Shown one piece after another: positions 6,438 through 62,338 of a DNA stretch of 64,000 nt (position 1 is the stretch's first letter; the number at the start of each line of letters is the position of its first letter). A program made the translations under genes and the position numbers. The notes beneath the pieces were generated by a model. It was not told where the DNA came from. It worked only from the letters and a program-made list of their open reading frames with translations, and searched no databases. Source of the DNA: Saccostrea cucullata (Eukaryota); the NCBI RefSeq assembly GCF_032062105.1, contig NW_026932975.1:434001-498000 (forward strand). Reading direction: 5' to 3'.

Positions 6438-9400
6438 TCACTTCCTTCCAATAACAACTGAAAAGAAAAAAAATTCCACTCTTAAACATGAAAAATAGTA
6501 ATAAAGAGGCAAGGATAGATATTCTACAATTGATAATAAATCGAAAAAGGGAAGCAAAGACTACTCACTCAGTGGCGCTCCACTGCAATCTTCGTCTATC
6601 CTTCCATCGGCATCATCGTCTTAAACAAAATAAAACAAAATAAAATGCTCAATAATATTACACCGAAACAATGTACTGAAAGTAATGTTTCAGATACTTA
6701 TTAATAATGATACACTGTTGATCTCGATTTACCTTTTCCATTGCAGTCCTCTTCATCTACCTCGCCGTCACAATCGTTATCGATTTCATCGCCCGGAGAC
6801 ATCGCCTTCGCGTTGCATCCCTTCAAAAAAATAAAACGTACAGTCGTGTATTCTTGAAACATGTACATGTAATGTGACAATAATACTTATCTTGAGAATT
6901 GTTATCATTATTGCCATAGATATGAAGCTGATCTATAACTTTACTTGGGTTTCAAACTTAAGGAAAGGATAAATTATAAAATTAACATTCTTGCCTCTAT
7001 ATCTTTGAACTTCATGTACTTGAATAAACATTGGCTAATGCTTATATAAAATACGTTTTGTCACTATTTTTACAGTGATTAAACATGATTTTTTGGAATA
7101 AACTCACAGAATTAACAGGTTGTGTAAGCAGGCCGATTGGAAATCCATAGGACTCGATTTTGGCTTTTCCGAACACGAGCCCACCAATAACCGTGTTCGG
7201 GTTGTTGTGCGTGACGGTATGGGTGCCAACGGATATTTTCACGTATCCCGCCGCTAGATTGGTGCCGGGAATGTGAACGTACGTTTGATTTTGTGGCAGG
7301 GGTTTCCCGTCTAGAATCAGACCTGCAGTCTGACTGGAGTCTATCACAAACATGAAATAGTTCTGATATTCGCCTTTGGAGTATTGGGGAGTGGCAAAAG
7401 TATAATCTGCAGCATATTGTTCAATGGGAGGAATTGTAATCATGCTGGGATCTGCAGCATCTACATGATTGTGACCTTTATCCTGTGTTGCCGAAAACTG
7501 ATACAAAGCAATTGGATTATTAGACACTACATGGGCGTATAGTGCCGAGCTATAATTCTTCTGTCTGAACCCCCCAGCATGACGTATGTTAAAATGGTCC
7601 GTAAAGTTTGTACCATTTATGACTCCTGTTACTCTTATATGCGTTTGGTCTTGGCTGGCGACAAATCTGAAAATATCACCCACATTTCTCTCCGGGATAG
7701 GCACTGTAGCGAAGTTTTTACCCCAAGCTTGTACTGGAAGCAACATTTCCGTCAAATGGTCACGTGAGTTAGCGATGGTACCAGGAAGAGCCACAACAGC
7801 TTTCTTGTTACCACTGATGACGCCCACAGCTTTGTCTGATATGACGTGAGAACCTGTGAGGTCACCAACAGAAGTGATCTGGAGGGTGCTATAGCGATTT
7901 AGTGTTGTGTTAATCCAGTCGCCCCCATGATAGACGTGGTTACGGAAAGTAACACTGACGTTGGGATGGTTAGCCAACTGGATATAAACATGACTGTGGT
8001 CATGGACTCCGATCACTGCAAACTCACAGTAGTAATAGGACGGGGAGTAGGAGATGGTGTAGTATTCTTTTCCCAGGACATCAGTAGGCAGTGCCAAGTA
8101 GGCATCGTCCGACCAGACTTCGCGGTTTACTCCGTATGCCACGACTTCCTCATCCGCCGAAATCAAAATCCCTTTTGTGCTTAGTTCGGTTTGGTTCAAT
8201 CGGAAGGCCTGATCTACAACCACTCGGTGAACAATTCCACGAGAGACGACAAACTGTTCGCTGATTCGTGGATTGGTTGATCCCGGTGACGTCACGTTGA
8301 CGTGTACTGGTTTGGTGCTTGATGTCGTAATAAAGATTTCAGGATTGATGTCTGTATTCTGTAAAATCTGATTGTCCATGAAAGTAACTATGAATTGCTT
8401 TCCCTTGCTGTCCAATGCTCCTGGAAATATTTACAGAACATGCATATATGTTAATGCAGATCTGACACGTTTGGAATTAGAATTTCATAATATTTCTTTT
8501 CTTTCTCCAGATAATAAACAAAACATGCCATAAGTCATAACTAAAATGGAAAATATTACAAAAGATATCAATTTTCCTGGTAAATGCAACCAAATCCAGT
8601 TTGGTGGCCCTTTAAGCAAGAACCCATCTTAATATCCAACTTTGTAAAAACTTTTTATTTTAAAAATGCTTTAAGTCAAACGCCAAATACAATAACCAAA
8701 GAGACAATTTAGGTATGGCTGTATGCTATCAGGTTTATTAATCCACCCCTTCTTATGTTTGACATTCCTTGGAAAATAAATTTTATATGACCATCACAAG
8801 TGTCCGATAAAAGATGCGTATATTATATAAGTTGTGTTCTTTATTCCACTCGTTTGGAACATCAAATTGACATTATTTAAATTACAAAGATTTAGAAATA
8901 TCAATTGTAATGTATGTCCCGGGTTTATGATATAGACCAATTTAATATTTCAGGGGAGGAAAATTTTATCGATGCTTTCCCCCCAAGGTTTACAAAAAAG
9001 TAAGGATATAAAACAATTGCAATGTATGTCCCGGCTTTATGATATAAACCAATTTAGTATTTTTGGGAATGAAAATTTTATAAACCTGTGGCATGATATT
9101 AAGTCTTCTCTAAAGAAAATGAAAGGAAAATGAAAGGAAAATGCTCCCCCCCCCCCCAAATGTTTACTAAAAATTACGGACAGATGATAAAACAATTTTT
9201 TTGACGAAATTCTGTGTAGCGGTTAAAGAGGAGTTGCGCTGACAAACTGTTCATCTCTATATTCAAGGTATGACTAAACATCTAAGATGAAAAGTACCGA
9301 AATTCCCAGGAAAAAATAAAGGAATCGGAATTTCCTTGTACATTTTGTGTCCTAAATATGTGCAAAGTTTGACCGAATTCTGTGCAGCGGCTTATGAGGA

Positions 9401-12000: not shown

Positions 12001-15000
12001 TTACTTCCTTCCAATAACTGCTGAAAAAGAGGAAAAAATATTTTTAAATTTAACAAAAAATAAATAAGTACAATTTGTGTGAAGTTAGCATATTAACTAA
12101 TTTAGCTTCAGAATACCAATTCTACTTACTTAGTTCAGTACCGCTACAGTCTTCGTCTATCCTTCCGTCTCCATCGTTATCTGTAAATCCAAAAATCAGA
12201 AATAAATACTAACTGTTCACATGAAGACCTCTCTAGACTGAATGCAGCAAACACAGAAAAGTCTAGAATCGTTATGACGTCATTAGCACATCACCACAAA
12301 TAACATTAAAGATCCATATGTATATTGCGATAAAAAAACGTGTAAATCCCGCAAAACTAGTAGATCTTTAGAACGAACGAATGAACATAATAGTAACGAT
12401 GATTAGAAATTTCGAGAGAAAGGGAAATCAAAATGAACATTCTAAAAAAATTTTTTATAACAACTCTCATATGTAAAGAAATTCAAGCTACTATGAACCA
12501 CAGATATGAGTAAAAGGTAGAATAACTAAATGCTTTGGTTGATTATTGTATACAGAGGGGGTCTTTAAAACTTCGTATTGGCTTTGAAGACCAGTCTTTC
12601 GGATGGGACCGTAAAACCAAGGCCCTGCATGTGTTGTAGTATGGCACAAAAAATATTCTTCTCTACCGATCAATAGTCCTTAATATCGAGTACAAGTCTT
12701 AAATTACCATCTCTCCACCAGCGAATTATTGAATAGTGGCGCCTTTGTATGAGTGAAATATTCTCGAAGAAACGTTAAACAAACAAACGGAAAATCAACT
12801 CATTATGCAAAACATTTAAACAAACTGACGCCAGTCGTTACCTTGTCCGTCGCAATCCTCTTCGTCCAATCTCCCGTCGCAATCGTTGTCTATTTCATCG
12901 CCTTTCTTCATCGGTGGTGCGTCACATACTGGGGCTTCACTTGTGGTCGGAGCAGACGGTGAGCTCGTGACTTGAGGATGCTGAGAAATTAAACAAAATA
13001 AAATTACACAAATCATAACATAAATTGGAAATTTCAAATATTACAACAGTTTACAACTATGCAAAAATATCTATCTTTTAATAAAGTACAATTCTCAGTC
13101 ATCTTAGGTTTTCAGTAAGGCGTTGGATTCTCGACATCAAATAGCTTCTGGAATTTACACAGCCTTTCTTTCATTCACTGTTGAAATATACATGGAAAGG
13201 AAATTCGAGCGAATGTCATCGAGTGTAGCAGTGATCCAATGACAGCGTTTCGTGCGGCAAAGAGGTGGGGCTTAAGTTATCTCATGATTGTCAACAAGAG
13301 TCTAAAGTTCCTGTCAGATGTTATTGATTTTTTTAACCAATGATAATCTATGTCGCCATTTGAAAAACGCTAATTACGTAGCCGAAAATACCACGCCTAC
13401 TGAAAGTCCAAGGATGACTGAATATTGTACTACTTTCCATAACAGAGAATCTTTGCATTAAATTTAAGAGAATTTTTGTGATTTGTTGTATAATGGCACA
13501 GTGATTTTGATCTTCTCAAATACTTAAATGTCGGTCAAGTTCTAAAACAATCTTTGAACAAGCACAACTATATTACAATCTTGCAGTCAACGATAAAATC
13601 AACTTTTGAAACAGGCTTGAAATAAGGTAATCAAAGTATAAATGGATAAAAAAGATATATTTAAAGGTGACTGATTCAACAACGCTTGAATTTACAGTGC
13701 AGGACGCCTTCTGTTTAGAGCAAATTGATCAGAAACAACTCACATGAACAGGATTGATGGGATTGACTAGGAATCCTATTGGAAATCCGTACGATTCCAC
13801 ATGAGCTCTGCCAAATAGGATTCCTCCTATTGTGACGTTGGGGCTTGTGTGTGTGACGGTGTGGGTTCCTACCGTTATATTAACGTACCCTCCTACAAGG
13901 TGCGCGCCGGGTATATGCACGTACTTCTGATGGTTTGGCAGTGGTTTTCCATCTAGAAGAAGGCCACCCTTTTGATGACTGTCGATTATAAACATAAACT
14001 GATTTAGGTATTGGCCTTTTGAATACTCCGGAGTTGTAAATGTATAATCTGTGCCGTACTGCTCAATGGGAGGCACCGTGATCATTGAGGGGTCGATATC
14101 TTCATGATGGTAGGCCTGGGTTCTGGAAAACTGAAATAAGGCGATTGGTTCACTGGCCACTACATGGGAGTACAGGAAGGAACTATAGACTTTTTGCACA
14201 AAGTCTCCGGCATGAGGAATGGTAAAGTTGTCAGTGAAGAGTGTTCCGTTAATTTTACCTTTCACCGATACTTTTGTGTTGTCTTTGCTTGCCACAAATC
14301 GAAACTCATCACCAACCGATCTCGCTGGGATGGGTACCGTTGCAAAATTTTTGCCCCATGACTGTACTGGCATCAACATTTCTGTTAGATGATCACGTGA
14401 CCCACCCGTGTTACCAACTATGGTTTTCTTGTTACCACTGATGACTCCGACAGGAAGACTTGAAATCACGTGACTTCCTGTTAGATCACCAACGGAGCTT
14501 ACTTGAAAGGTTTGGTATTTGTTCATAGTAACGTTTATCCAATCATTTTTGTGATACACGTGATTGTTGTACGTCACTTGAACTCCGTCTCGGTTCGGAA
14601 GCTGTATGGACACGTGTGTGTTGTCATTTCCAGAGATAACTGCAAACACGCAATAGTAGTAGGCCGGTGCGTATGAGATGGTGTAATACTCTGTACCTAA
14701 TACGTCTGTTGGTAAGGCTAGGTAGGCGTCATCTGATGCCGTCTCTCTGTTGACGCCGTAGACAACTATCTCATCATCAGTTGTTATTTTGATGGCTTTG
14801 TTGACCAGTTCGGTATGGTTCAAACGAAAATGAGGATCGACTTCCACCTTGTGGACAACACCGCGGGTCACAACAAAGGACATGTGGATTCTAGGATTTG
14901 TGGAGCCTGGGGAATTGACGTGAACATGGACTGGGTGATTACTGGCGGTAGTAATAAATAGTTCTGGACTGATGTCAAGTTTTGGATTGTGAAAGTTGTC

Positions 15001-15174
15001 CAAAAACGCAACAATGAATTTTGTTCCCGTTATCCAATGCAGCTTAAAGATAAAAAAATTTATTGAAGACAGGACAGGATTTGTTGGTGTACATTGTAAA
15101 AAATAAGAATCTGTACATAACTCACAGTACACCAAAGGAAGGAAAAATAGTCCAATACACAAAATGGACTTCAT
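12001..15174 (-). CDS. Secreted IgGFc-binding-domain protein, paralog 1 (apparent 2-nt frameshift at start of exon 2; possible pseudogene allele or assembly error)
   Basis: Exons 15174-15126 (MKSILCIGLFFLPLVY), 15042-13744 (IgGFc_binding domain), 12980-12842 (S/T/P linker plus CDAPPMKKGDEIDNDCDGRLDEEDCDGQ), 12180-12130 (DNDGDGRIDEDCSGTEL), 12020-12001 (TVIGRK*). Spliced length is 1558 nt, not a multiple of 3. Confidence 0.85.
12590..12790 (+). mobile_element. Diverged SINE 3' part
   Basis: TCTTTCGGATGGGACCGTAAAACC...ATGAGTGAAATATTCTCG...ACGTTAAACAAACAAAC resembles the reverse complement of the 11064 SINE. Confidence 0.6.
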
Positions 15175-15232: not shown

Positions 15233-16010
15233 ACGTACATTTATACGTGGGCCTACATGTACGTGAATGATGGTCAGATGTTCAATGCTTACTTGGAAAA
15301 GAGGGGTCAGAAAATAGGCCAATTTTCGATTTTTTTTTTTTTTTATTATTTTTTTTTTAATGATCTATGATCACATTCGTCTTGAATTTTTTTATCACAG
15401 AAAGTCGCAGACTTAGATACAATGTCTGTACTAATAATTTTTCTGGTATATGAATTTCCACCCCCAACATTCCGCCTCCAACTTGGCTCATGCGGTGCAT
15501 AAAATATCCTTCAACTTTCCGGAATATCGAGTTATCTCTCCTTTGAGTGATAAAGTAATTTGGTTTGTGAAAAAAAGTTTGTTGCAGATATTAATCTTGG
15601 GAAAGAGGGGACAAATAATACATTGAGAATTCTACTATTCAATCAAATTTTCACCGCCATTTAATTTTTTTCATCCCTAAATTGCGGATAAAATTTAAAA
15701 GACATTCCACAAATGGGGATATAAATGTCATTCTTTAAATCTAATTACCGGTAATGCGAACAGTAATATTTCTCTTTCATATATAGAGAGGAAAGACATG
15801 GATCGCTACATTTGACAAAATCTTATGTTATTATTCCTAATGTCAGTGTATTGTTTTACTTTCAATCTGGTCTGGGAAATCAGGAAAACTAGGTAAAGCT
15901 TTTCAGTGGACAATTTATTTCATATTTGTAAATTGATGAAATATCTGTGTAATAACCCTTTAAAAAAATTAAGATTTTTAAAAATTTTATTATGAAAATG
16001 TTTAGTTTTG

Positions 16011-17557
16011 ATGGCGGTTGACGGTTCTCAGAGAAACGAAGACTGGCAATCCTTCCGATCTGTTACCGACTGCAATAAGTACATGCTGACCAATGAAATT
16101 AATTGTGACATCACTTTCTTGATCGGAAGAGAGCGACAGCGCATGTCCGCCCATAAATATGTTCTTGCGAGTCGAAGCTCTGTCTTTTTTGCCATGTTTT
16201 ACGGTCCTGTGGCTGAAACAAATACTGAAATTGCGATTCCTGATTTGAAACCAAACATTTTTGCCTCTCTCCTGCGGTAGGCTAGTATACACAACCTAAA
16301 GTAATATGATAAAATAAAAATTAATATTCTGAGCACTAAATACGAGTAGTATGGAAAAGAAAATTTTTGAGTTCTTGAAATTTAGTTACCACAAATCCTG
16401 TATTTATCATTTAATTTTTTTCACATTCCTCGTTCTCTTTCAGTTTTCTGTATTATGAAGATTTGACTGTTCAAACGAATAATGCTCCAGATTTGCTTTA
16501 CGCAGCAAACAAATATGGTCTGATGAAAATTGTGAAAAAATGCAAAAAGATTCTGGAAGAGACAATGTCGGTCTCCAATGTCTGCAGTATCATGGAAAGT
16601 GCTCACACTTTTAACGACGCAGAACTACTCCGGAAGTGTCGAGAATTTTTCTATAAAGAGTCCGTGAAATGTATCCAATCAGAATCCTTTTTAGATCTCT
16701 GTGCAGAATGTATAGATAACATCATTTCCTCTGACGAACTTACCGTAGAGGAGTACTTGATTTTAGAGAGGGTTCTTGAGTGGGCAGATGCTGAGTGTGT
16801 TCGGAAAGACAAAGATTTAAATGATGCCAACAGACGACAGGCCCTCGGTAAAATCTTGAATCACATCAGGTTCCCTATCATGGATTCAAAATATTTTGCC
16901 GAAAATGTAGCTTGTCGTGAAATACTGTCAAAATCGGAAAGGCTTGCTATTTTCACTTTTATATGCAGCGGTCATAAATCTCAGACTGATTGTAATTTTA
17001 AGACATCCAAACGGAGAGGAAGATATGCGAGATCTAGTTCTTCGAGGCAAAATGCCCACATGTCACAAAGTAACAGACAAAGAGTGGCGATGCGATTTGC
17101 GCGCGAAGGACACGTTTCACTTAGGAACGAAAATCTTTGGTATGTGGGACAGAAATCCGATAAAATTGACTTTACGTCTTCCAAGACAATATATATTCAT
17201 GGAATCGTGATGTACGGCTGTGGAATTGAGGGGACAGAGTACAGCGTGAATGCCTCCATCCTTAGAACTGGTTTACCATTTCTTTCCAATGAACTTTCCC
17301 ACGTGAGCACAACGGTTCCTGTGAGAGTACCATATAAAACCTTCAACGTATTCTTTCCGGAACCTGTGCACATTTCACCGAATATAAAGTACACGATATC
17401 TGTGACCATGCAGGGTCCACGAAGCTACTGGGGAGAAGGAGGTGAGGAATCCGTAACTAGTGACGGTGTTCAGTTCGACTTTCACAAATCGTCAGGGGAG
17501 GCAAATGGAACAGATGTGGATCACGGTCAAATTCCTGGACTTATATTCATTAAATAG
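16011..17557 (+). CDS. BTB/POZ-BACK-PHR domain protein (BTBD1/2/3/6-like Cullin-3 adaptor), about 459 aa
   Basis: Exons 16011-16276 (CDITFLIG...SAHKYVLASRSSVFFAMFYG, BTB) and 16444-17557, joined in phase 2 (CG|gtaggc...cag|T). BACK region (LEWADAEC...IRFPIM) and PHR C-terminus (NGTDVDHGQIPGLIF). Confidence 0.9.
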
Positions 17558-32459: not shown

Positions 32460-33013
32460 GTTGGTTTGTTCAGTAATATTTTTTTTCCTAGACAAACTTC
32501 AGTTCTAAGCTTTTATTCTGGACTTTATTATGCCAATTGCGTTAAGCAGATCGATTCTAGACTTTCATTTCTTTCCTTGTACACAATGTTTTTTTCTTTG
32601 TTTGTCAGATAAGAATTTCTGTAAGTGTGTTTGTAAGATAAAATTCGTCATAGAGCAACTATACATGTATATAGGTTTGTAGATTCATTTTTTAAAGCTT
32701 TTAAAGGTGGAATACGGAAAGAAAATAATTTTATTTCTTGTAAATGTTAAATTCTACGTCGTCTTGCGTGAAATCATCATGGTTGGAAAAATCCATTAAT
32801 AGCTCTGAAGTTAGTAACTTTTATTTTTTCTTTTAAATGGAACTCTCAAAGATTACTTTCTCATTTTTATTCATTTTATTTTTTTTAAAAAATTCAAAAC
32901 ACAAACATTTTAAAGAAACAAACAAAAGGTCTTTGACTCCAGCGAAGGTTCCTCCTTTTACGCCCTATATACTGTAAAATTATCTGTCATGGCAGGTTTT
33001 TTTGTCGTTGTAG

Positions 33014-34334
33014 ACTGATGGAGAGGACAAGCATAGACCACCGACGCTCTCGGACAGTGCCCTGGTTCGAGGACAATAGATCCTCCTATCAGCACCACGC
33101 CGAGTACCTTAAAAAGCTATCCACTCTGCGAGATGAACTTATTCTTCAGGAGCAGTCACACCTTGCCAATGCACTCGACAGATTACGCATGCGCCAATAC
33201 AGCAGAGATAACGCGCTTGCGCGGAATAGATCAAAGGATTTTCCTCCAGACTCAAGGCGATCTTTAGTGACTACCATCGAACAATTCCAGAAAATGAGAC
33301 CAAAGAGGTCTCCACCACATATATCCCCATTAGAGGGAAAACAGATTCTAGAACCACAGACTTATAAACCCTCCAAAAGTCCGCAGTTATCGGAGAAAGG
33401 TGCGTCTCAACGGTTAATGGACGACAGTGTTCGGGCAAACCTACAGAGGATACCACCAACAACCGTGCAACCGACATCTAGCATCCCGAATATAGGACGT
33501 AAATCCATCGCTAAAAGCAAGGAACTGGTATTAGATGGTTCTCCAATCCACAGGCGTGGTACGTTACCGTCGCGAGATGAGAGAGACCCATTGGAAATAA
33601 ACCCGTTCAAAGCTGTGTACAAGGGTAATAATGGAACGCGTTTAAAGCGTCTAGTGCGACCAGATTCCGACGAACTTGATTTGCGAGCTCAAGCTATAAG
33701 GTTTGAAGCATTAAGTGATAAAGATAGGATAAATATGGACAAACTGAGAGAATATTACTGCATTTACTATCTACCAACAAACACACCAACGAACGTGTCA
33801 GATGACGAAGATTCAATGGAAATACCGGAAGAAAGAGTTGTGCAGGAATCGGCGGGATTTCAGCATGATAAAAAGAAACGTTTGACTCTGCTAGAGGGTA
33901 GAGGAAAAGGTGTACATCCCGCTGATCGTGTTATTAATTCTCCAAGGAAATCTCGAGAGGAACAAAATAACAACGGAATCACAGACAGATTGTTTCTAAA
34001 TGGCCAGGGAATTCGAGACCAGGATGTGACAGTACCGGCGGAAAGTCAACCGCTGGAGGAAAGCCCGTCGTTCTCCATATACGGTGATCAAAATTGTGCA
34101 GTTCCTGCCCGGAAGCAAATCATTGTGGACATGCCTTCTATTGTATTCAATAACGCATCACCAGAAAATGAGAATTCTGACGTCTTGGAACGGAAGCGGC
34201 GTTCAGTGTTACAAAAGACGTTCAAGCAGAATGAGATCCGACAACGGGAACTACGTAATCTGTTCGATGACGTCAGAGAATTGAACAAACGTAGTGACGA
34301 ACTGACAGAGTCAATAAAGTCCTCTTCAGATTAA
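33014..34334 (+). CDS. Constant coding exon of an uncharacterised, largely disordered protein with predicted helical/coiled-coil ends (438 aa from ATG 33018)
   Basis: 1.3-kb stop-free, GC-enriched ORF. Acceptor ttgtag|A CTG ATG at 33013/33014; AATAAA near 34556. No domain recognised. Confidence 0.8.
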
Positions 34335-56606: not shown

Positions 56607-59600
56607 TTATGTGGAGAGTTGCAGAATTTGTCGTATTTTGTCGACACAGACATCGGAGGCCAGTCTTGCCTCTTTGCTTGCTGTGGAGAAGTTGAGGAAG
56701 CCATGAGGAAGATCATCCACCGGATGCAGCTCCACCTGGTTACCAAGGCTACGCAGTCGTCGAGCAAACATCACCGCATCATCCAACAGGGGATCTAGGT
56801 GGCAGGCCTTTAGAAAACACGAAGGTATCATTAAAAAGAAGATAAAGGCTGTCATTCATGAATTTGTTTTTTTAAGAAACATATATCGTCTATGTAAAAT
56901 AATTTGAAATGATTAGAACATCAGTTTATATAAATAAATATACATATTTTAAAGTTCTTTAAATACAATCTATTTTAAGATGTCCTAGGGCCTTCACAGT
57001 CACTGAATATAAATAATTATAGGCAGTAAGTGGTACAAAACACATCTTGAGTTCTATCCATGTTTATTTACAAACACATTTACAGGCCTACTTACCACCA
57101 TTTTTATGGGAGGTAGACACTTCAGCATTTCATCAGGGGCCAGGAACGGTGACATGTAGGGATTCTTTACTATTGGATGTTTCCGGAACATCTGTAGAGG
57201 ACTGAACCTCTTGTGAACTTCCTTGGTGTACTGGGGGGTGAACTTTCCAGTGAAACCGTATCGTAGAGATTCGCTGATCTCGGGACAGGAGGGACTGTGG
57301 GTAAGAGAGTGGCTATGGTGGTTTATCATTGACAGGTCCAATTCCAGCTTTTCTTTACTGTCCTGTGAAACTGACTTCTGCATTCCTGCCATATCTGACC
57401 TTGTCAATGACCCTGCCATTAAGTCCATTACACAGGAAGTATGACCTGGTCGGTTTTGTTGTAAATGTCCGTCAGATTTGGAAGCAGGAAGGGTGAAATC
57501 ATTCACCGCTGTATCATCATTGGTTGGTTCTGAGATGTCTTCAGGTTTTACAATATCATAATCCTCCTCTTCAGAACTTTCTAGAATAATTTCATCGGAG
57601 TTCTCTGTGGTTAAGTGTTCCACCTCTTCTATACTAGACTCCGAAGCCCGATTGACCGTCTTTAAAATCGTAATGTCCTCATCTGAATCTGCACAGATTC
57701 CCTCCAGAACAGAGGACTGCTGACTAGAAATATCTGGCTCATCATGGAGTGATTCAATGGAGTGACATCTGTTTGATTTGTCCATTTTTTGTCCAGAAAT
57801 GTTGTGGTCATCTAAATTCTCCAAAGATTCAATGGAATGACAGCTACTTGTCATTGAGGAGAAGTTGTCTCCCTTGTTTCCAGTTTTGTCCTTGTAGTTA
57901 AAGATGTCTTCATCATGGAGTGCCTCTTCTGCCTCAATGATCTCAAAAGGTTCATCTACTGCATTCTCTATCTTGTCTGCTATCCCAGCATATGCTTAAA
58001 ATAGATTAAAAAAATTTACTTGTTACATCATGGACATGCTTTGCATAAATACATGGCTTATCACATGTAATGGCAACTCAAACATTGCATTAATTTTTTA
58101 AAATGCTATCTGCAGTCTTTATGACTTTCTGTGATGACCCCTGTTCATCCTTACATTTAACATGCTAGCTGCAATAATGTAGCCCTCCCCCCTTTTTTTA
58201 AAAAAGAAAAAATCAGATTAAAAAAAATAAAATAGGAGAGGGATACATTATTGCAGCTATTAACACACATAAATTAAACTGTAAAACATCCTTATAACTT
58301 TGAAATTAAGAAATCTGTAGAAAACTTACCTGCCAGACACCTCATCATGATTCCTACTGGTAGGAGGGGGTCCATCAGGGCTAGGATGCGGGCAGGAGAG
58401 GGTGTGTACCTCACCAGGACCACAGGGTAGGCAGTCATAATCCCGTCCGGGATCTGGATCCCACAGGATGCTGCCCTCAGAGCAGTGGAGATCATCAGGT
58501 TCCCTCCCGCACTGTCCCCAGCCAAACACAAGGTCTCTCCCGTCCAGCCTACAATTCAATCATCATGTTTTATTAAGGCTTTGTAAATTAATCAGGCCCA
58601 ATACACATATTACATACCATAAACCAACATTCTAAGTTTACCAGTATCTTTTACCTTAAAAAAACCATAGGTAATCAAAGATTACGAAGCTCACCTCGAC
58701 GAATGTAATCAGTCTAAGTAATGCAAATCTCAAATCATATTTTCTTAAAAGTAAGTATTTATTCTGACAACAATATTCAAGCAAGTGCTGTTTAAATAGG
58801 TCTTAAAGTTCATTGGGATTGATCTGTTCCAAAAACTTTAACCTGGTCACTCATCTGGAAAATGTAGGTAAGATCCAGCATCCAAAGCAAGTTTTGATTG
58901 TTCATCCTTAGATGCATCATCCATGCAAGTTTGCTCTAGGTAGGACTTATGATTACTTGGGAATAACCTAGTCACTAATCTGGAAAATGCAGGTCAGATC
59001 CAGTATCCAAAGCAAGACTGGTAGTGTCCATCCCTAGATGCATCATCCATGCAAGTTTGGTCTGGGTAGGGTTAATACTGTAGAAGCACCAATTTTCGTG
59101 GAGATAAAATTTCGTTGATTTGTCATCAAAAATAGTTTCGTTGGCATTTAATTTCGTTGTTTTGAGAGTAAGCCTTTTCAATATATAGTCATATAAAATT
59201 TTGTGTGGGATTTAATTTCGTTGATAATTGTTTCCAACAAAATAAATGAAATTAAATCCCCAACGAATATTTGTGCTTTTACAGTAGTTACTTTGGAATG
59301 GACCTGCTCCAACCTGGTCACTCATCTGGAAAATGTAGGTCAGATCCAGCATCCGAAGCAAGTCAGGTAGTGTCCATCCCTAGATGCATCATCCATGCAA
59401 GTTTGGTCTGGGTAGGGCTAATAGTTACTTTGGAATGGACCTGCTCCAAAAACTTTAACCTGGTCACTCAACTGGAAAATGTAGGTCAGATCCAGCATCC
59501 GAAGCAAGTCAGGTAGTGTCCATCCCTAGATGCATCATCCATGCAAGTTTGGTCCGGGTAGGGCTTATCGTTACTTGGGAATGAACCTGCTCCTAAACTT

Positions 59601-62338
59601 GAACCGGGACGCCGACGCTAACGCCGAAGCCAACACCGGGGGTATAGCACAAGCTCATCTCGACTTCGTCGAGGTGAGCTAAAAATGTATCAAATTTGTT
59701 CTTTATGAATAAAGCTACAATTCTCTCTGATGAACCATCAAAAGTTAGGGCATGTAAACATTCTTTTATGTAAGGCCTAACTGTTTGTTGAAAGACTTTT
59801 GTCTTGATATTTTTTTATTGTTCAAATGAAATAATGTATAGCAATTATACTTTCGTTTTAGTCATTCTTATAGCTCTAACATAAATCTTATCAATGTACA
59901 CTTTAATGTAATTACCAAATAAGAAAATTCATGTTTCGTGACCTACTTTAATCTTTTGCTTTGAGACCATTTTCTATAAAACATTAAGACATTTACCAAG
60001 TTTTGTACGATTTTTGATGGCCCAGGCATAGGCAAAGAAGCACTCTTCTAGAGCTCTAGGAAATGGTTGTTCTGGAGCCAGGGAGTAGTCTATAGACAGT
60101 ATGGGAACATTGAGATCCTTAGCCCACTGTCTGAGATAGATCCCGTGGGATTTGGAGGACTGGGCTACAAACCCTCCCCCATGACAGTGGATCAAGAGAC
60201 TGCTGGACATTGGGAGGCGATGGCGGGGGTTCTGATTACCATGACGCAACTCCTGTCAACAGAATAAAAGATGGGTCATACCGGTATATCAAATTATATA
60301 TCGTAAGTAAACAGGACTTTAAACTTCAATTTTATTTATAGATTTGATAATAACATCTCTTATACTGTATATGTACTTAAAAAAGCGGGATTCATATTTT
60401 TGCTCAGAAATCGTACATATATACAATATACAGTGTGGAAGTGTGTAGCGCCAATTCCTGAATAAGTCAACAACTCAATACACGTTGATTGCCCTAAATT
60501 TTGAATATGCTAATTTATGTACACGTAGAGTATTACACATGAAATGAATTATACATGTAATATAATTGAAGATCAAAGCATATGATGGTAATATTTACAG
60601 ACAAATCAGAGAAACTATCAGTACCTGCCCCTCCCTGGGTTCATATGACATCAGTCTGACTTTCACTGGTCCTGGCCCAGTGTGGGCACAGGGAGCTGTT
60701 ATTGTGACCATGTCTGTTGGATTGTCAGAGTTCACAGCTGGTAACTCAAAAGACTCTGGCATCAGGTACATCACCTCATTCACCTTAATGGCTGGACAAA
60801 CTAAAGAAGGCAGGGCCTAAACAAAATAAAGTCAATGTTGGCAGAAATATGTTTTGGACAGAAATATAAGAACAGTAAAATTAGGTAGAGTTTATGAATA
60901 CATTACCTGCATAATGTCAGACTCTGTTATGGACCAGAAATTCTTGCAGAATTCTACACTGGCTGTTCTTGTTACACTCACAATCTGTCAGGAAAAAAGG
61001 AGAAAAACTTTTCAACATTGTCTGATTGAGACAATTTCATAAATTCAGTAAAAAATAAGTCTAAATTATTCATGTATTTTTACACTGGTTTCTTTGGTCT
61101 TTATTGTGCTACAAATGATTGCATCTTCATATTCCTATTTTACAATAGGCATTTTACTACTTTATCAGTGTTTAAAAATGTTTCCAATAAATCAAGAGAT
61201 TAGTTGAGCCCAAAGCCGTAGTCATAAACTGTACTCACCTGCTCTGCTCTGAGTTCAGGGTTCATGAAATACTTCCCGCTGTGAATCACAGAAGTGGTCA
61301 GCTGTTTGAAGTTAGTTTTCTCCAGGTATCCCTCACTGAAGGATGCCATAGCAACAGCTACTGTTGTCAGGGGTTTGTGCATGCTTTCACAGAACTAAAA
61401 TGTACAAGACCGATATGTGGCATTTGTTCCTACATGTATCAACTTTTCATGTGACAGTTCAACAAATAAATTCTAGCATTTTTATGACAGCTTGTTACTT
61501 ATATCTTACTCATGCAGATGATTTAAATAAACATGGTCTAATATAAAAGATACTAAGCAGATTAAATCAATATTAAAGTACAAATTATTGATGACAAACC
61601 TGGAAACCTAAACATCGTCCATAGAAACAATTTTGACCCAAACTCTCTACTTCCTCCATCAAGCGCTCTACCACAGGGTCGTTTAAATTGTCTTCATCAG
61701 CAAACAGTGACCCTTCCTGACTGTAAACTACAAGTTTTTGGGCATAGTAAAGAGTGGCTCTTAACTGGCCGAGACATATTACATAGGCCTCTAGTTCCTT
61801 GCTGTAAAAGTTCCCTCGGAAAAATAAGGAACTGCGATTGGCATTGACATAGCGAGACAGTCTTAAAAGGTTTATGCAGCATTTTTGGACAACTTTCAGA
61901 AGGCTGCGATATCCATTAGCCTGTGTGTCTGGTGACAAATCGTACTTTGGAAGAAGTGGCACTATCTGTTCAATGGATGGCTGTATACCTCTGAAAAAAA
62001 TTGTAGAAATATTTTTTTTTTAATCAAATATATTTTATATATTTTTCAATTAATTCTTTCATTTAAGGCAACAAAAAAGAGTGAATCATTTTTAAAAAGT
62101 ACTGACATTACTATCAATGGGTTGTTCACTGTGAATTCTCTCATAAATTGTACAGAATTACCTTCCTAACCAACATCTCATCACAGTTTACCACTCACCT
62201 GTCAAGATGCTCAAATAACATGCAGAAAGACTGATGGAATTTAGCATGTGTGCTGCTTGTTCCATGCTGAAAAAATTCAATGTTACTGAGTGATAATGCC
62301 CTTAGATCTCTGAATAAAGAGTTAAATAGTCTCGCCAT
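56607..62338 (-). CDS. LIPE: Hormone-sensitive lipase, about 843 aa
   Basis: Exons 62338-62199, 61990-61600, 61394-61239, 60984-60907, 60816-60625, 60252-59997, 58548-58330, 57994-57096, 56807-56607. HSL N-terminal motifs ([17 protein letters not shown]), [37 protein letters not shown]. Confidence 0.94.
58685..59685 (+). repeat. Helentron-like element with an internal tandem array (about 125-146 bp units) in a LIPE intron
   Basis: About 4 copies of CCTGGTCACTCATCTGGAAAATGTAGGTCAGATCCAGCATCC...; (GACGCC)-like microsatellite; terminal hairpin AGCTCATCTCGAC-TTC-GTCGAGGTGAGCT, whose arm is inverted at about 58688. Confidence 0.75.
59078..59284. mobile_element. MITE inserted into the tandem array
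   Basis: TA|CTGTAGAAGCAC...GTGCTTTTACAG|TA. The neighbouring uninterrupted unit reads ...AATAGTTACTTTGG, confirming a TA duplication. Confidence 0.85.

Follow-up and report, generated by a model that had tools for sequence, protein, structure and literature searches.

A 64,000-nucleotide stretch of the genome of the oyster Saccostrea cucullata (contig NW_026932975.1, positions 434,001 to 498,000; hereafter the window, or G000:C15112:434001-498000 in the 1.17 Gb genome that was searched) carries three tandem genes in its bases 1-15174. These genes, paralogs 1 to 3, lie on the minus strand and have five exons each. A signal-peptide-like exon is followed by a 1.3-kb exon for an IgGFc_binding (FCGBP_N) domain, then by two small exons that each hold one acidic DxDxDGxxDE repeat, and finally by a 20-nucleotide terminal coding exon that closes the protein with Val-Ile-Gly-Arg-Lys. 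The FCGBP_N domain (PF17517; 196 and 202 bits against a cut-off of 25.6) is N-terminal, at residues 123-429 of the 507-residue database protein P0001. This protein is identical to paralog 2 across the query and, like the 507-residue translation of paralog 2, ends IVIGRK-stop. The Pfam scan of P0001 returned only PF17517 and a match to PF11617 (Cu-binding_MopE repeat) that is a resemblance only, at 16-17 bits under the curated 27-bit cut-off; it found no VWD-C8-TIL units. A Foldseek search with the FCGBP_N model returned nothing meaningful (TM score <=0.16).

An original prediction, made from the letters of the window, had placed terminal exons of 20 nucleotides at 12020-12001 and 6457-6438 on the minus strand, and translation and splice signals confirm both. 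Each stands behind a pyrimidine tract and a CAG acceptor, the preceding intron is 109 or 111 nucleotides long with the donor GTAAGT or GTGAGT, and an AATAAA lies at 6425, beside the paralog 2 exon. The coding nucleotides were said to be identical in paralogs 1 and 2, and the 15-mer GTTATTGGAAGGAAG indeed has exactly two sites in the window, one in each of these exons. The same exon was to be sought for paralog 3 just left of the window; it is there, encoding TVIGRK-stop with other Arg, Lys and stop codons than those of paralogs 1 and 2. A pattern of the exact exon shape matches three times in the genome, at the three paralogs, and its control not at all. Among the paralogs the terminal exons are 80-85% identical; intron 4 is 54-56% identical and the opening 100 nucleotides of the 3' untranslated region 44-50%.

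Use of the terminal exon in transcripts, also expected by the prediction, is seen as a spliced tail in contigs of three studies. Eight of 24 runs were compared with the window; they come from a related organism or strain, and most records are 90-99% alike. A contig of run X1 joins 6457 to 6569 of paralog 2 over a GT..AG intron (CT..AC on the forward strand), one of run X5 departs from paralog 1 exon 4 at 12132 and reads on as T-I-I-G-R-K-stop, and one of run X2 continues from exon 4 into V-I-G-R-K-stop with altered Gly and Arg codons and a paralog-2-like untranslated region. No contig among the runs compared covers the paralog 3 terminal exon, and the raw-read run X22 has a depth of about 0-2 over the exons. 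Near 15029 (15029-15042) paralog 1 is two nucleotides shorter than the transcripts of two runs, X3 and X5. Spliced as its paralogs are, it is frameshifted in this assembly, through either an assembly error or a null allele; with its 83-nucleotide intron 1 retained, a 546-residue frame is open by chance. The database model of paralog 1, P0127, has a foreign N-terminus and ends in ELSK from reading into a donor, and it is one of several gene models (with P0128, P0019, P0031 and P0170) that show how often the small last exon is missed. The terminal exon is nevertheless real, spliced and under selection. That it should be a functionless leftover of truncation and duplication, kept by recent copying or gene conversion, might be suggested by the tandem arrangement of the three genes and by the frameshift of paralog 1. 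Such an origin is scarcely credible, since codons change synonymously among paralogs and transcripts while the protein stays fixed, since the motif is shared by oysters, mussels and clams and recurs in an unrelated family whose intron phase differs, and since the lectin locus counts with their controls and the tail statistics given below already contradict it.

How far the ending extends within the family was counted among FCGBP_N database relatives whose second repeat lies no more than 40 residues from the end, isoforms and orthologs included. It is present in 43 of these 49 proteins, and only one of the 22 distinct Gly-ending tails is not of this type. The Gly may be followed by nothing, by R, RK, RR, RKK, RKR or RRR, or by RRRKR and then NFI, NFV or NLV. 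Saccostrea members end in [TI]VIGRK or SIIGRK; Ostrea edulis has VIGRKK, VIGRKR, IIG, VIG and LVG; Mytilus has AIGR, IFGRR, IVGRRR and VVGRRRKRNFI. This genome holds a fourth clade member (L003:7655-8538, in G000:C5052), whose ending, PVVG-KR-GFL-stop, reads as a textbook convertase-plus-amidation site. Thus the Gly and the hydrophobic pair of the predicted VIGRK unit stand, but its basic residues are optional, and the conserved unit, called the tag below, is hydrophobic-[IV]-Gly. A midpoint-rooted tree built from 41 FCGBP_N domains groups all 14 tagged rows in a single clade (support 100/99), with untagged relatives around it; the Pinctada sister rows are untagged models whose 3' ends look unreliable. 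Of 134 more distant representatives eight end in Gly and none has [IV][IV]G, and many of these distant relatives run on into TSP1, EGF, LDLa or membrane segments. It is likely, judging from these architectures, that the oyster-mussel clade swapped a modular C-terminal extension for the tag. The predicted model of P0001 has pLDDT below 50 over residues 490-507. The mussel members P0010, P0017, P0018, P0022 and P0023 have a Cys-Cys pair inserted just before the tag, which oyster members do not; the pair could form interchain disulfides.

The prediction had described the ending for this one protein family, but it is not special to it: the tag is also found on C-type lectins, which are unrelated. 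Its companion suggestion, that other secreted proteins would end alike, was sound: lectins of this genome, of mussels and of clams do so. The lectin gene L024, found through a pattern match, has a phase-2 intron after its last domain exon and then a 31-nucleotide exon ending in AFEAPIIGK-stop. All 11 named full-length proteins among the 16 matches to L024 end in [IV]IG(K/R)0-2, the other five being unnamed partial open reading frames. Lectin loci were then taken regardless of their tails, as the best 60 of 152 last-exon matches to the L024 lectin in this genome, and the domain end could be located in 58. A separate in-phase terminal exon ending hydrophobic-[IV]-Gly, mostly with a bare Gly, is present at 26 of the 58, as compared with 0, 1, 1, 5, 1 and 0 loci of 58 when Gly is replaced by A, P, T, S, R and E, respectively. 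Locus L091 carries the tag and failed the acceptor rule of this count, and L127 and L141 have NTVIG-stop within the domain exon, the last intron being absent. Strict [IV][IV]G exons lie downstream of the lectin domain at 28 of 58 loci in the sense orientation and, as a strand control, at 7 of 58 in antisense. They are found at 25 of the 28 loci with a splice donor 5 nucleotides past the domain and at 3 of the 30 without one. Many lectins of this genome stop right after the domain and are tail-less; the tag is not universal but confined to some secreted proteins, among them about half of the lectin loci.

The tails themselves were compared in 138 lectins longer than 125 residues with a readable domain end, 110 of which have a tail of 6-22 residues. 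The ending G[KR]0-4 closes 107 of the 110, and one of the three exceptions is IIG-KR-NQ. Among 70 distinct tails, position -1 from the Gly is I or V in 68 and position -2 is V, I or L in 68, while positions -3 to -8 are variable. Nothing follows the Gly in 55 of these tails, K in 10 and RK in two, the rest having RR, KR or KRNQ. The model of a lectin tail has no secondary structure (pLDDT about 61). An ESM Atlas feature search with the lectin tail gave no usable match, and a PDB sequence search with a lectin matched generic lectin domains but told nothing about the tail. The intron before the tag is in phase 1 in the FCGBP_N genes and in phase 2 in the lectins.

The sequence X-Gly-(Lys/Arg)n is a C-terminal amidation signal, used in turn by a prohormone convertase or furin, by carboxypeptidase E or D and by PAM, and it is established that PAM amidates a luminal C-terminal Gly. 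As in PAM substrates, the Gly stands last, or has only basic residues or a convertase site behind it, in 43 of 49 models of the FCGBP_N clade, in 107 of 110 tailed lectins and in L003; the C-terminus is unstructured in both structure models (FCGBP_N and lectin), although this is predicted only. All three paralogs and most lectins have a hydrophobic N-terminal exon, judged by eye. Variation after the Gly among a stop, basic residues and dibasic or furin sites fits substrates of convertase, carboxypeptidase and PAM, and the prediction that carboxypeptidase and PAM act on these proteins keeps that much support; its carboxypeptidase step would often be unneeded, because most carriers end on a bare Gly. 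Trimming to the Gly is well supported by inference from the endings, and amidation, as the usual fate of a Gly so exposed, would be expected to follow. Large proteins have been reported to take this path: Chlamydomonas proteins larger than 50 kDa yield amidated C-terminal peptides, one of them ending in Ile-amide (PMC6919629), and large Gly-ending proteins are amidated by Chinese hamster ovary (CHO) cells (PMC4482046). Oysters (C. gigas) make amidated neuropeptides (PMC4200219).

The interpretation that is favored here, with a probability of roughly 55%, is that a short last exon gives FCGBP_N proteins and many lectins an amidated [IV][IV] end that is docked by a common, putative reader. Tagged proteins would enter the secretory pathway, the regulated one in the prediction; basic residues or a dibasic or furin site after the Gly would be removed by a convertase and carboxypeptidase E or D, a step that most lectins would skip, as their Gly is already last; and PAM would turn the Gly into an amide. 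After such trimming the diverse FCGBP_N endings would give one common product. The uncharged hydrophobic end, on a tether of 5-15 residues, might then dock on the reader, candidate types being a cargo receptor of granules and a scaffold of mucus, and the amidated end would also resist carboxypeptidases. The different intron phases, together with the position of the tagged FCGBP_N clade among untagged relatives, point to separate acquisition of the tag by the two families and to a reader that acts in trans. Two unrelated folds have fixed the same two branched residues on a variable, unstructured tether, which goes beyond amidation alone and for which a common reader appears to be the simplest account. 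The sharing of these two branched hydrophobic residues by unrelated proteins is also why the sorting or assembly tag, offered by the prediction as an alternative to amidation, would be needed.

It is here that a purely protective role for the amide must be considered, in which it caps the protein against carboxypeptidases of mucus or gut, the hydrophobic pair reflects a preference of PAM and there is no reader. Such a role has the merit of requiring no new component, and it suits a tail that is predicted to be flexible and exposed. Amidated peptides are known with many different end residues, and position -2 of the lectin tails is held as tightly as position -1 (68 of 70 each), which exceeds the general needs of amidation. 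Many lectins of the same genome also manage without a tail, and it would be uneconomical to add a floppy tail just to cap it. Capping as the sole function is accordingly judged improbable.

A more ambitious form of the docking interpretation is put forward only tentatively. The exon would encode a portable [IV][IV]-amide address, read by a putative receptor or scaffold, that loads or tethers unrelated recognition proteins into one secretion. The proteins so addressed would, again tentatively, be C-type lectins, FCGBP_N proteins and some fibrinogen-like proteins, with a feeding or immune mucus as an example of the secretion. If this is true, amidation, beyond its part in hormone activation, would also be a code by which folded proteins are sorted or assembled. 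For the docking interpretation as a whole, mucus is the probable setting, since both families have been reported from bivalve mucus or adhesion (PMC6337334, PMC10140915, PMC12842671).

Several results weigh against the docking of an amidated end, or narrow its reach. Six of the 49 FCGBP_N models end without the tag, as does P0122, whose 41-residue tail falls outside the 40-residue cut; the six look like intron read-through or alternative models, and a further isoform model, P0128 of O. edulis, is tag-less. Among the joints listed, one low-depth contig of run X3 links paralog 2 exon 4 to 5910 (joint 5910/6565), with non-canonical ends and bypassing the tag exon, and is possibly a minor tag-less isoform or a chimera. 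The samples include isoforms, orthologs and, at some lectin loci, probable haplotype duplicates, and the database lectins were retrieved with tagged lectins, so that the set is enriched; of its named proteins, 43 of 59 from oysters and 3 of 12 not from oysters (Mytilus, Mercenaria, Mactra) end in the strict motif, as does 1 of 23 unnamed ones. Only two families, FCGBP_N and the lectins, carry the tag in number. Ependymin has it in 0 of 12 matches, C1q in 0 of 21 readable ends (30 loci), and fibrinogen-like proteins in 1 of 30 loci, some of whose matches are not last exons, and in 0 of 13 readable ends of 20 more. Two candidate carriers, the copper monooxygenase L249 and the serine protease L257, were rejected, since each has its own stop ahead of the putative tag exon. 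PF03712 has 26 matches in this genome; those examined look DBH/MOXD-like, and PAM was not identified among them. In big defensins, native masses matched without amidation, and the available text of that report offers no support for non-neuronal amidation (PMC3182236).

The amide, like the trimming, is read from a sequence pattern, which a Gly carboxylate would fit equally well. The active form might be [IV][IV]G with a free carboxylate: the trimming would be as described, a cargo receptor or other partner would bind the exposed end much as C-terminal sorting determinants are bound, and amidation would be absent or incidental. Several facts agree with this: 55 of the 70 distinct lectin tails end on a bare Gly, the pattern is blind to the difference between Gly-COOH and amide, the constant hydrophobic pair would suit a binding groove, and C-terminal hydrophobic ends do have receptors, such as sortilin and those for plant vacuolar sorting determinants. 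It is still considered rather unlikely, because the Gly is fixed while its flanks vary and because amidation by PAM is established for luminal Gly and works on large proteins (PMC4482046, PMC6919629). An invariant terminal Gly on an unstructured tether in unrelated proteins also recalls conjugation tags, and the tail could in principle be a substrate for covalent attachment, its Gly being joined to the mucus or shell matrix by a transpeptidase or ligase. Amidation accounts for the Gly without an extra enzyme, and we know of no luminal Gly-conjugating enzyme in animals, none having been looked for here, which makes covalent attachment very improbable.

Beyond the two main families, a single divergent fibrinogen-like protein (L241:1474-1974, minus strand, in G000:C9264; PF00147 confirmed) has TVTVIG-stop inside its domain exon. 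Genome-wide DNA patterns were rejected as a census of the tag, as repeats dominate them and they are usable as leads only. Two patterns gave 171 matches against 211 in the control and 19 against 75; lectin genes were found in 1 of 12 matches of the first that were examined with upstream DNA and in 3 of 19 of the second. For a pattern with 173 matches against 18, most of those listed are one repeat, and another, with 79 against 20, includes about 30 copies of one repeat. Examination of 50 loci, 30 of them new, and of 20 further stretches confirmed no additional tagged family. As a separate observation, L250-L252 (G000:C11524:138000-183000) are tandem, multi-domain, DBH/MOXD-like copper monooxygenase genes.

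The exons of the array are listed in Table 1. A BTB-BACK-PHR gene (15996-17557, plus strand) adjoins paralog 1 on the opposite strand. Farther along the window are a 465-residue open frame without a Pfam match (32937-34334, plus strand), exons of a protein kinase, presumably akin to a TGF-beta/activin type I receptor (44660-47201, minus strand), and exons of a hormone-sensitive lipase (57054-62019, minus strand; PF06350, PF07859). A high-copy repeat with a tRNA-like head (judged by eye) lies at about 11050-11410 and at 6200-6310, is very deep in all four runs compared there and is probably a short interspersed element.

Table 1. Exons of the three FCGBP_N genes, in window positions unless a contig is named
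Feature	Position	Strand	Support
Paralog 1 exon 1, signal-peptide-like by eye	15126..15174	-	joint 15028/15126 in X3 and X5
Paralog 1 exon 2, IgGFc_binding (FCGBP_N) domain, 2-nucleotide deficit near 15029	13744..15042	-	E 2e-59
Paralog 1 exon 3, Ser/Thr/Pro linker and first acidic repeat	12842..12980	-	weak PF11617 match
Paralog 1 exon 4, second DxDxDGxxDEDC repeat	12130..12180	-	joint 12180/12842 in 4/4 runs
Paralog 1 terminal coding exon, (T)VIGRK-stop	12001..12020	-	exon-shape pattern; spliced T-I-I-G-R-K-stop tail, run X5
Paralog 2 exon 1, signal-peptide-like by eye	9859..9910	-	joint in X1
Paralog 2 exon 2, IgGFc_binding (FCGBP_N) domain	7108..8420	-	E 1e-57
Paralog 2 exon 3, first acidic repeat	6733..6820	-	translation and transcript contigs
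Paralog 2 exon 4, second acidic repeat	6569..6619	-	translation and transcript contigs
Paralog 2 terminal coding exon, (I)VIGRK-stop	6438..6457	-	joint 6457/6569 in X1; matching loose end in X2
Paralog 3 exon 1	3791..3842	-	database protein P0003
Paralog 3 exon 2, FCGBP_N domain	739..2054	-	translation
Paralog 3 exon 3	135..222	-	translation
Paralog 3 exon 4, continues past window edge	1..33	-	translation
Paralog 3 terminal exon, TVIGRK-stop	G000:C15112:433856-433837 (L001:9356-9337), about 150 nucleotides left of window	-	exon-shape pattern

If the docking of an amidated end is true, dozens of lectins per oyster genome, together with the FCGBP_N proteins, would be PAM substrates and would make up a large class of amidated, folded animal proteins, and the tag would be a simple sequence marker of one secretory route or cell type in bivalves. 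Bivalve mucosal lectins govern the selection of food particles and the recognition of pathogens (PMC12842671). Recombinant lectins that are made in bacteria or with C-terminal tags would then miss the native end, and the amidated peptides would escape any mucus proteome search in which amidation is not set as a variable modification; the amidation idea is directly testable on existing proteomics data. A search of the literature, with subscription journals and figures outside its scope, returned no paper describing an [IV][IV]G ending that bivalve lectins or FCGBP_N proteins have in common, and the available text of two reviews of bivalve lectins has no passage on this tail (PMC10140915, PMC12842671).

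Comparison with known systems helps to separate what is familiar in the tag from what is not. The tag shares with canonical amidation signals an invariant Gly, with a stop, basic residues or a dibasic or furin site behind it, on proteins with signal-peptide-like N-termini. Unlike those signals, the bivalve tag is found on folded proteins of 17-55 kDa and not on short peptides, it comes from a dedicated last exon, and the residues before its Gly are common to unrelated families. The window proteins share with FCGBP_N/IgGFc_binding (PF17517) proteins the FCGBP_N domain, here behind a signal-peptide-like exon, and invertebrate members of that family mostly lack VWD (PMC4948705). They differ from vertebrate FCGBP in having no VWD-C8-TIL units, and so are not an FCGBP orthologue by architecture. 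Other FCGBP_N relatives have TSP1, EGF, LDLa or membrane anchors, whereas in the oyster-mussel clade nothing comes after the two acidic repeats and the tag. The secreted, single-domain C-type lectins of bivalves ("perlucin-like") bear the same tag, on a last exon of their own and behind an unrelated fold. Myticalins, like the proteins described here, are secreted mussel products, specific to the gill, in which a Gly before a dibasic site has been read as an amidation signal, but they are short antimicrobial peptides, and their amidation is likewise predicted only (PMC12294457). There is also a likeness to ciliary ectosome proteins of Chlamydomonas, such as the precursor of the GATI-amide peptide, which are large, secreted and end in Gly or Gly-(K/R)n; the amidated peptides were recovered from gel slices above 50 kDa (PMC6919629). 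In that system mass spectrometry demonstrated the amide, and the peptide is a chemotactic signal, while the bivalve tag is known from sequence; no hydrophobic-pair motif across unrelated folds is described in the available text (PMC6919629). The FCGBP_N domain family, the amidation pathway and large amidated proteins are thus already known, and what appears to be new is an amidation-type ending that unrelated bivalve secreted proteins have in common as a small, exon-encoded tag.

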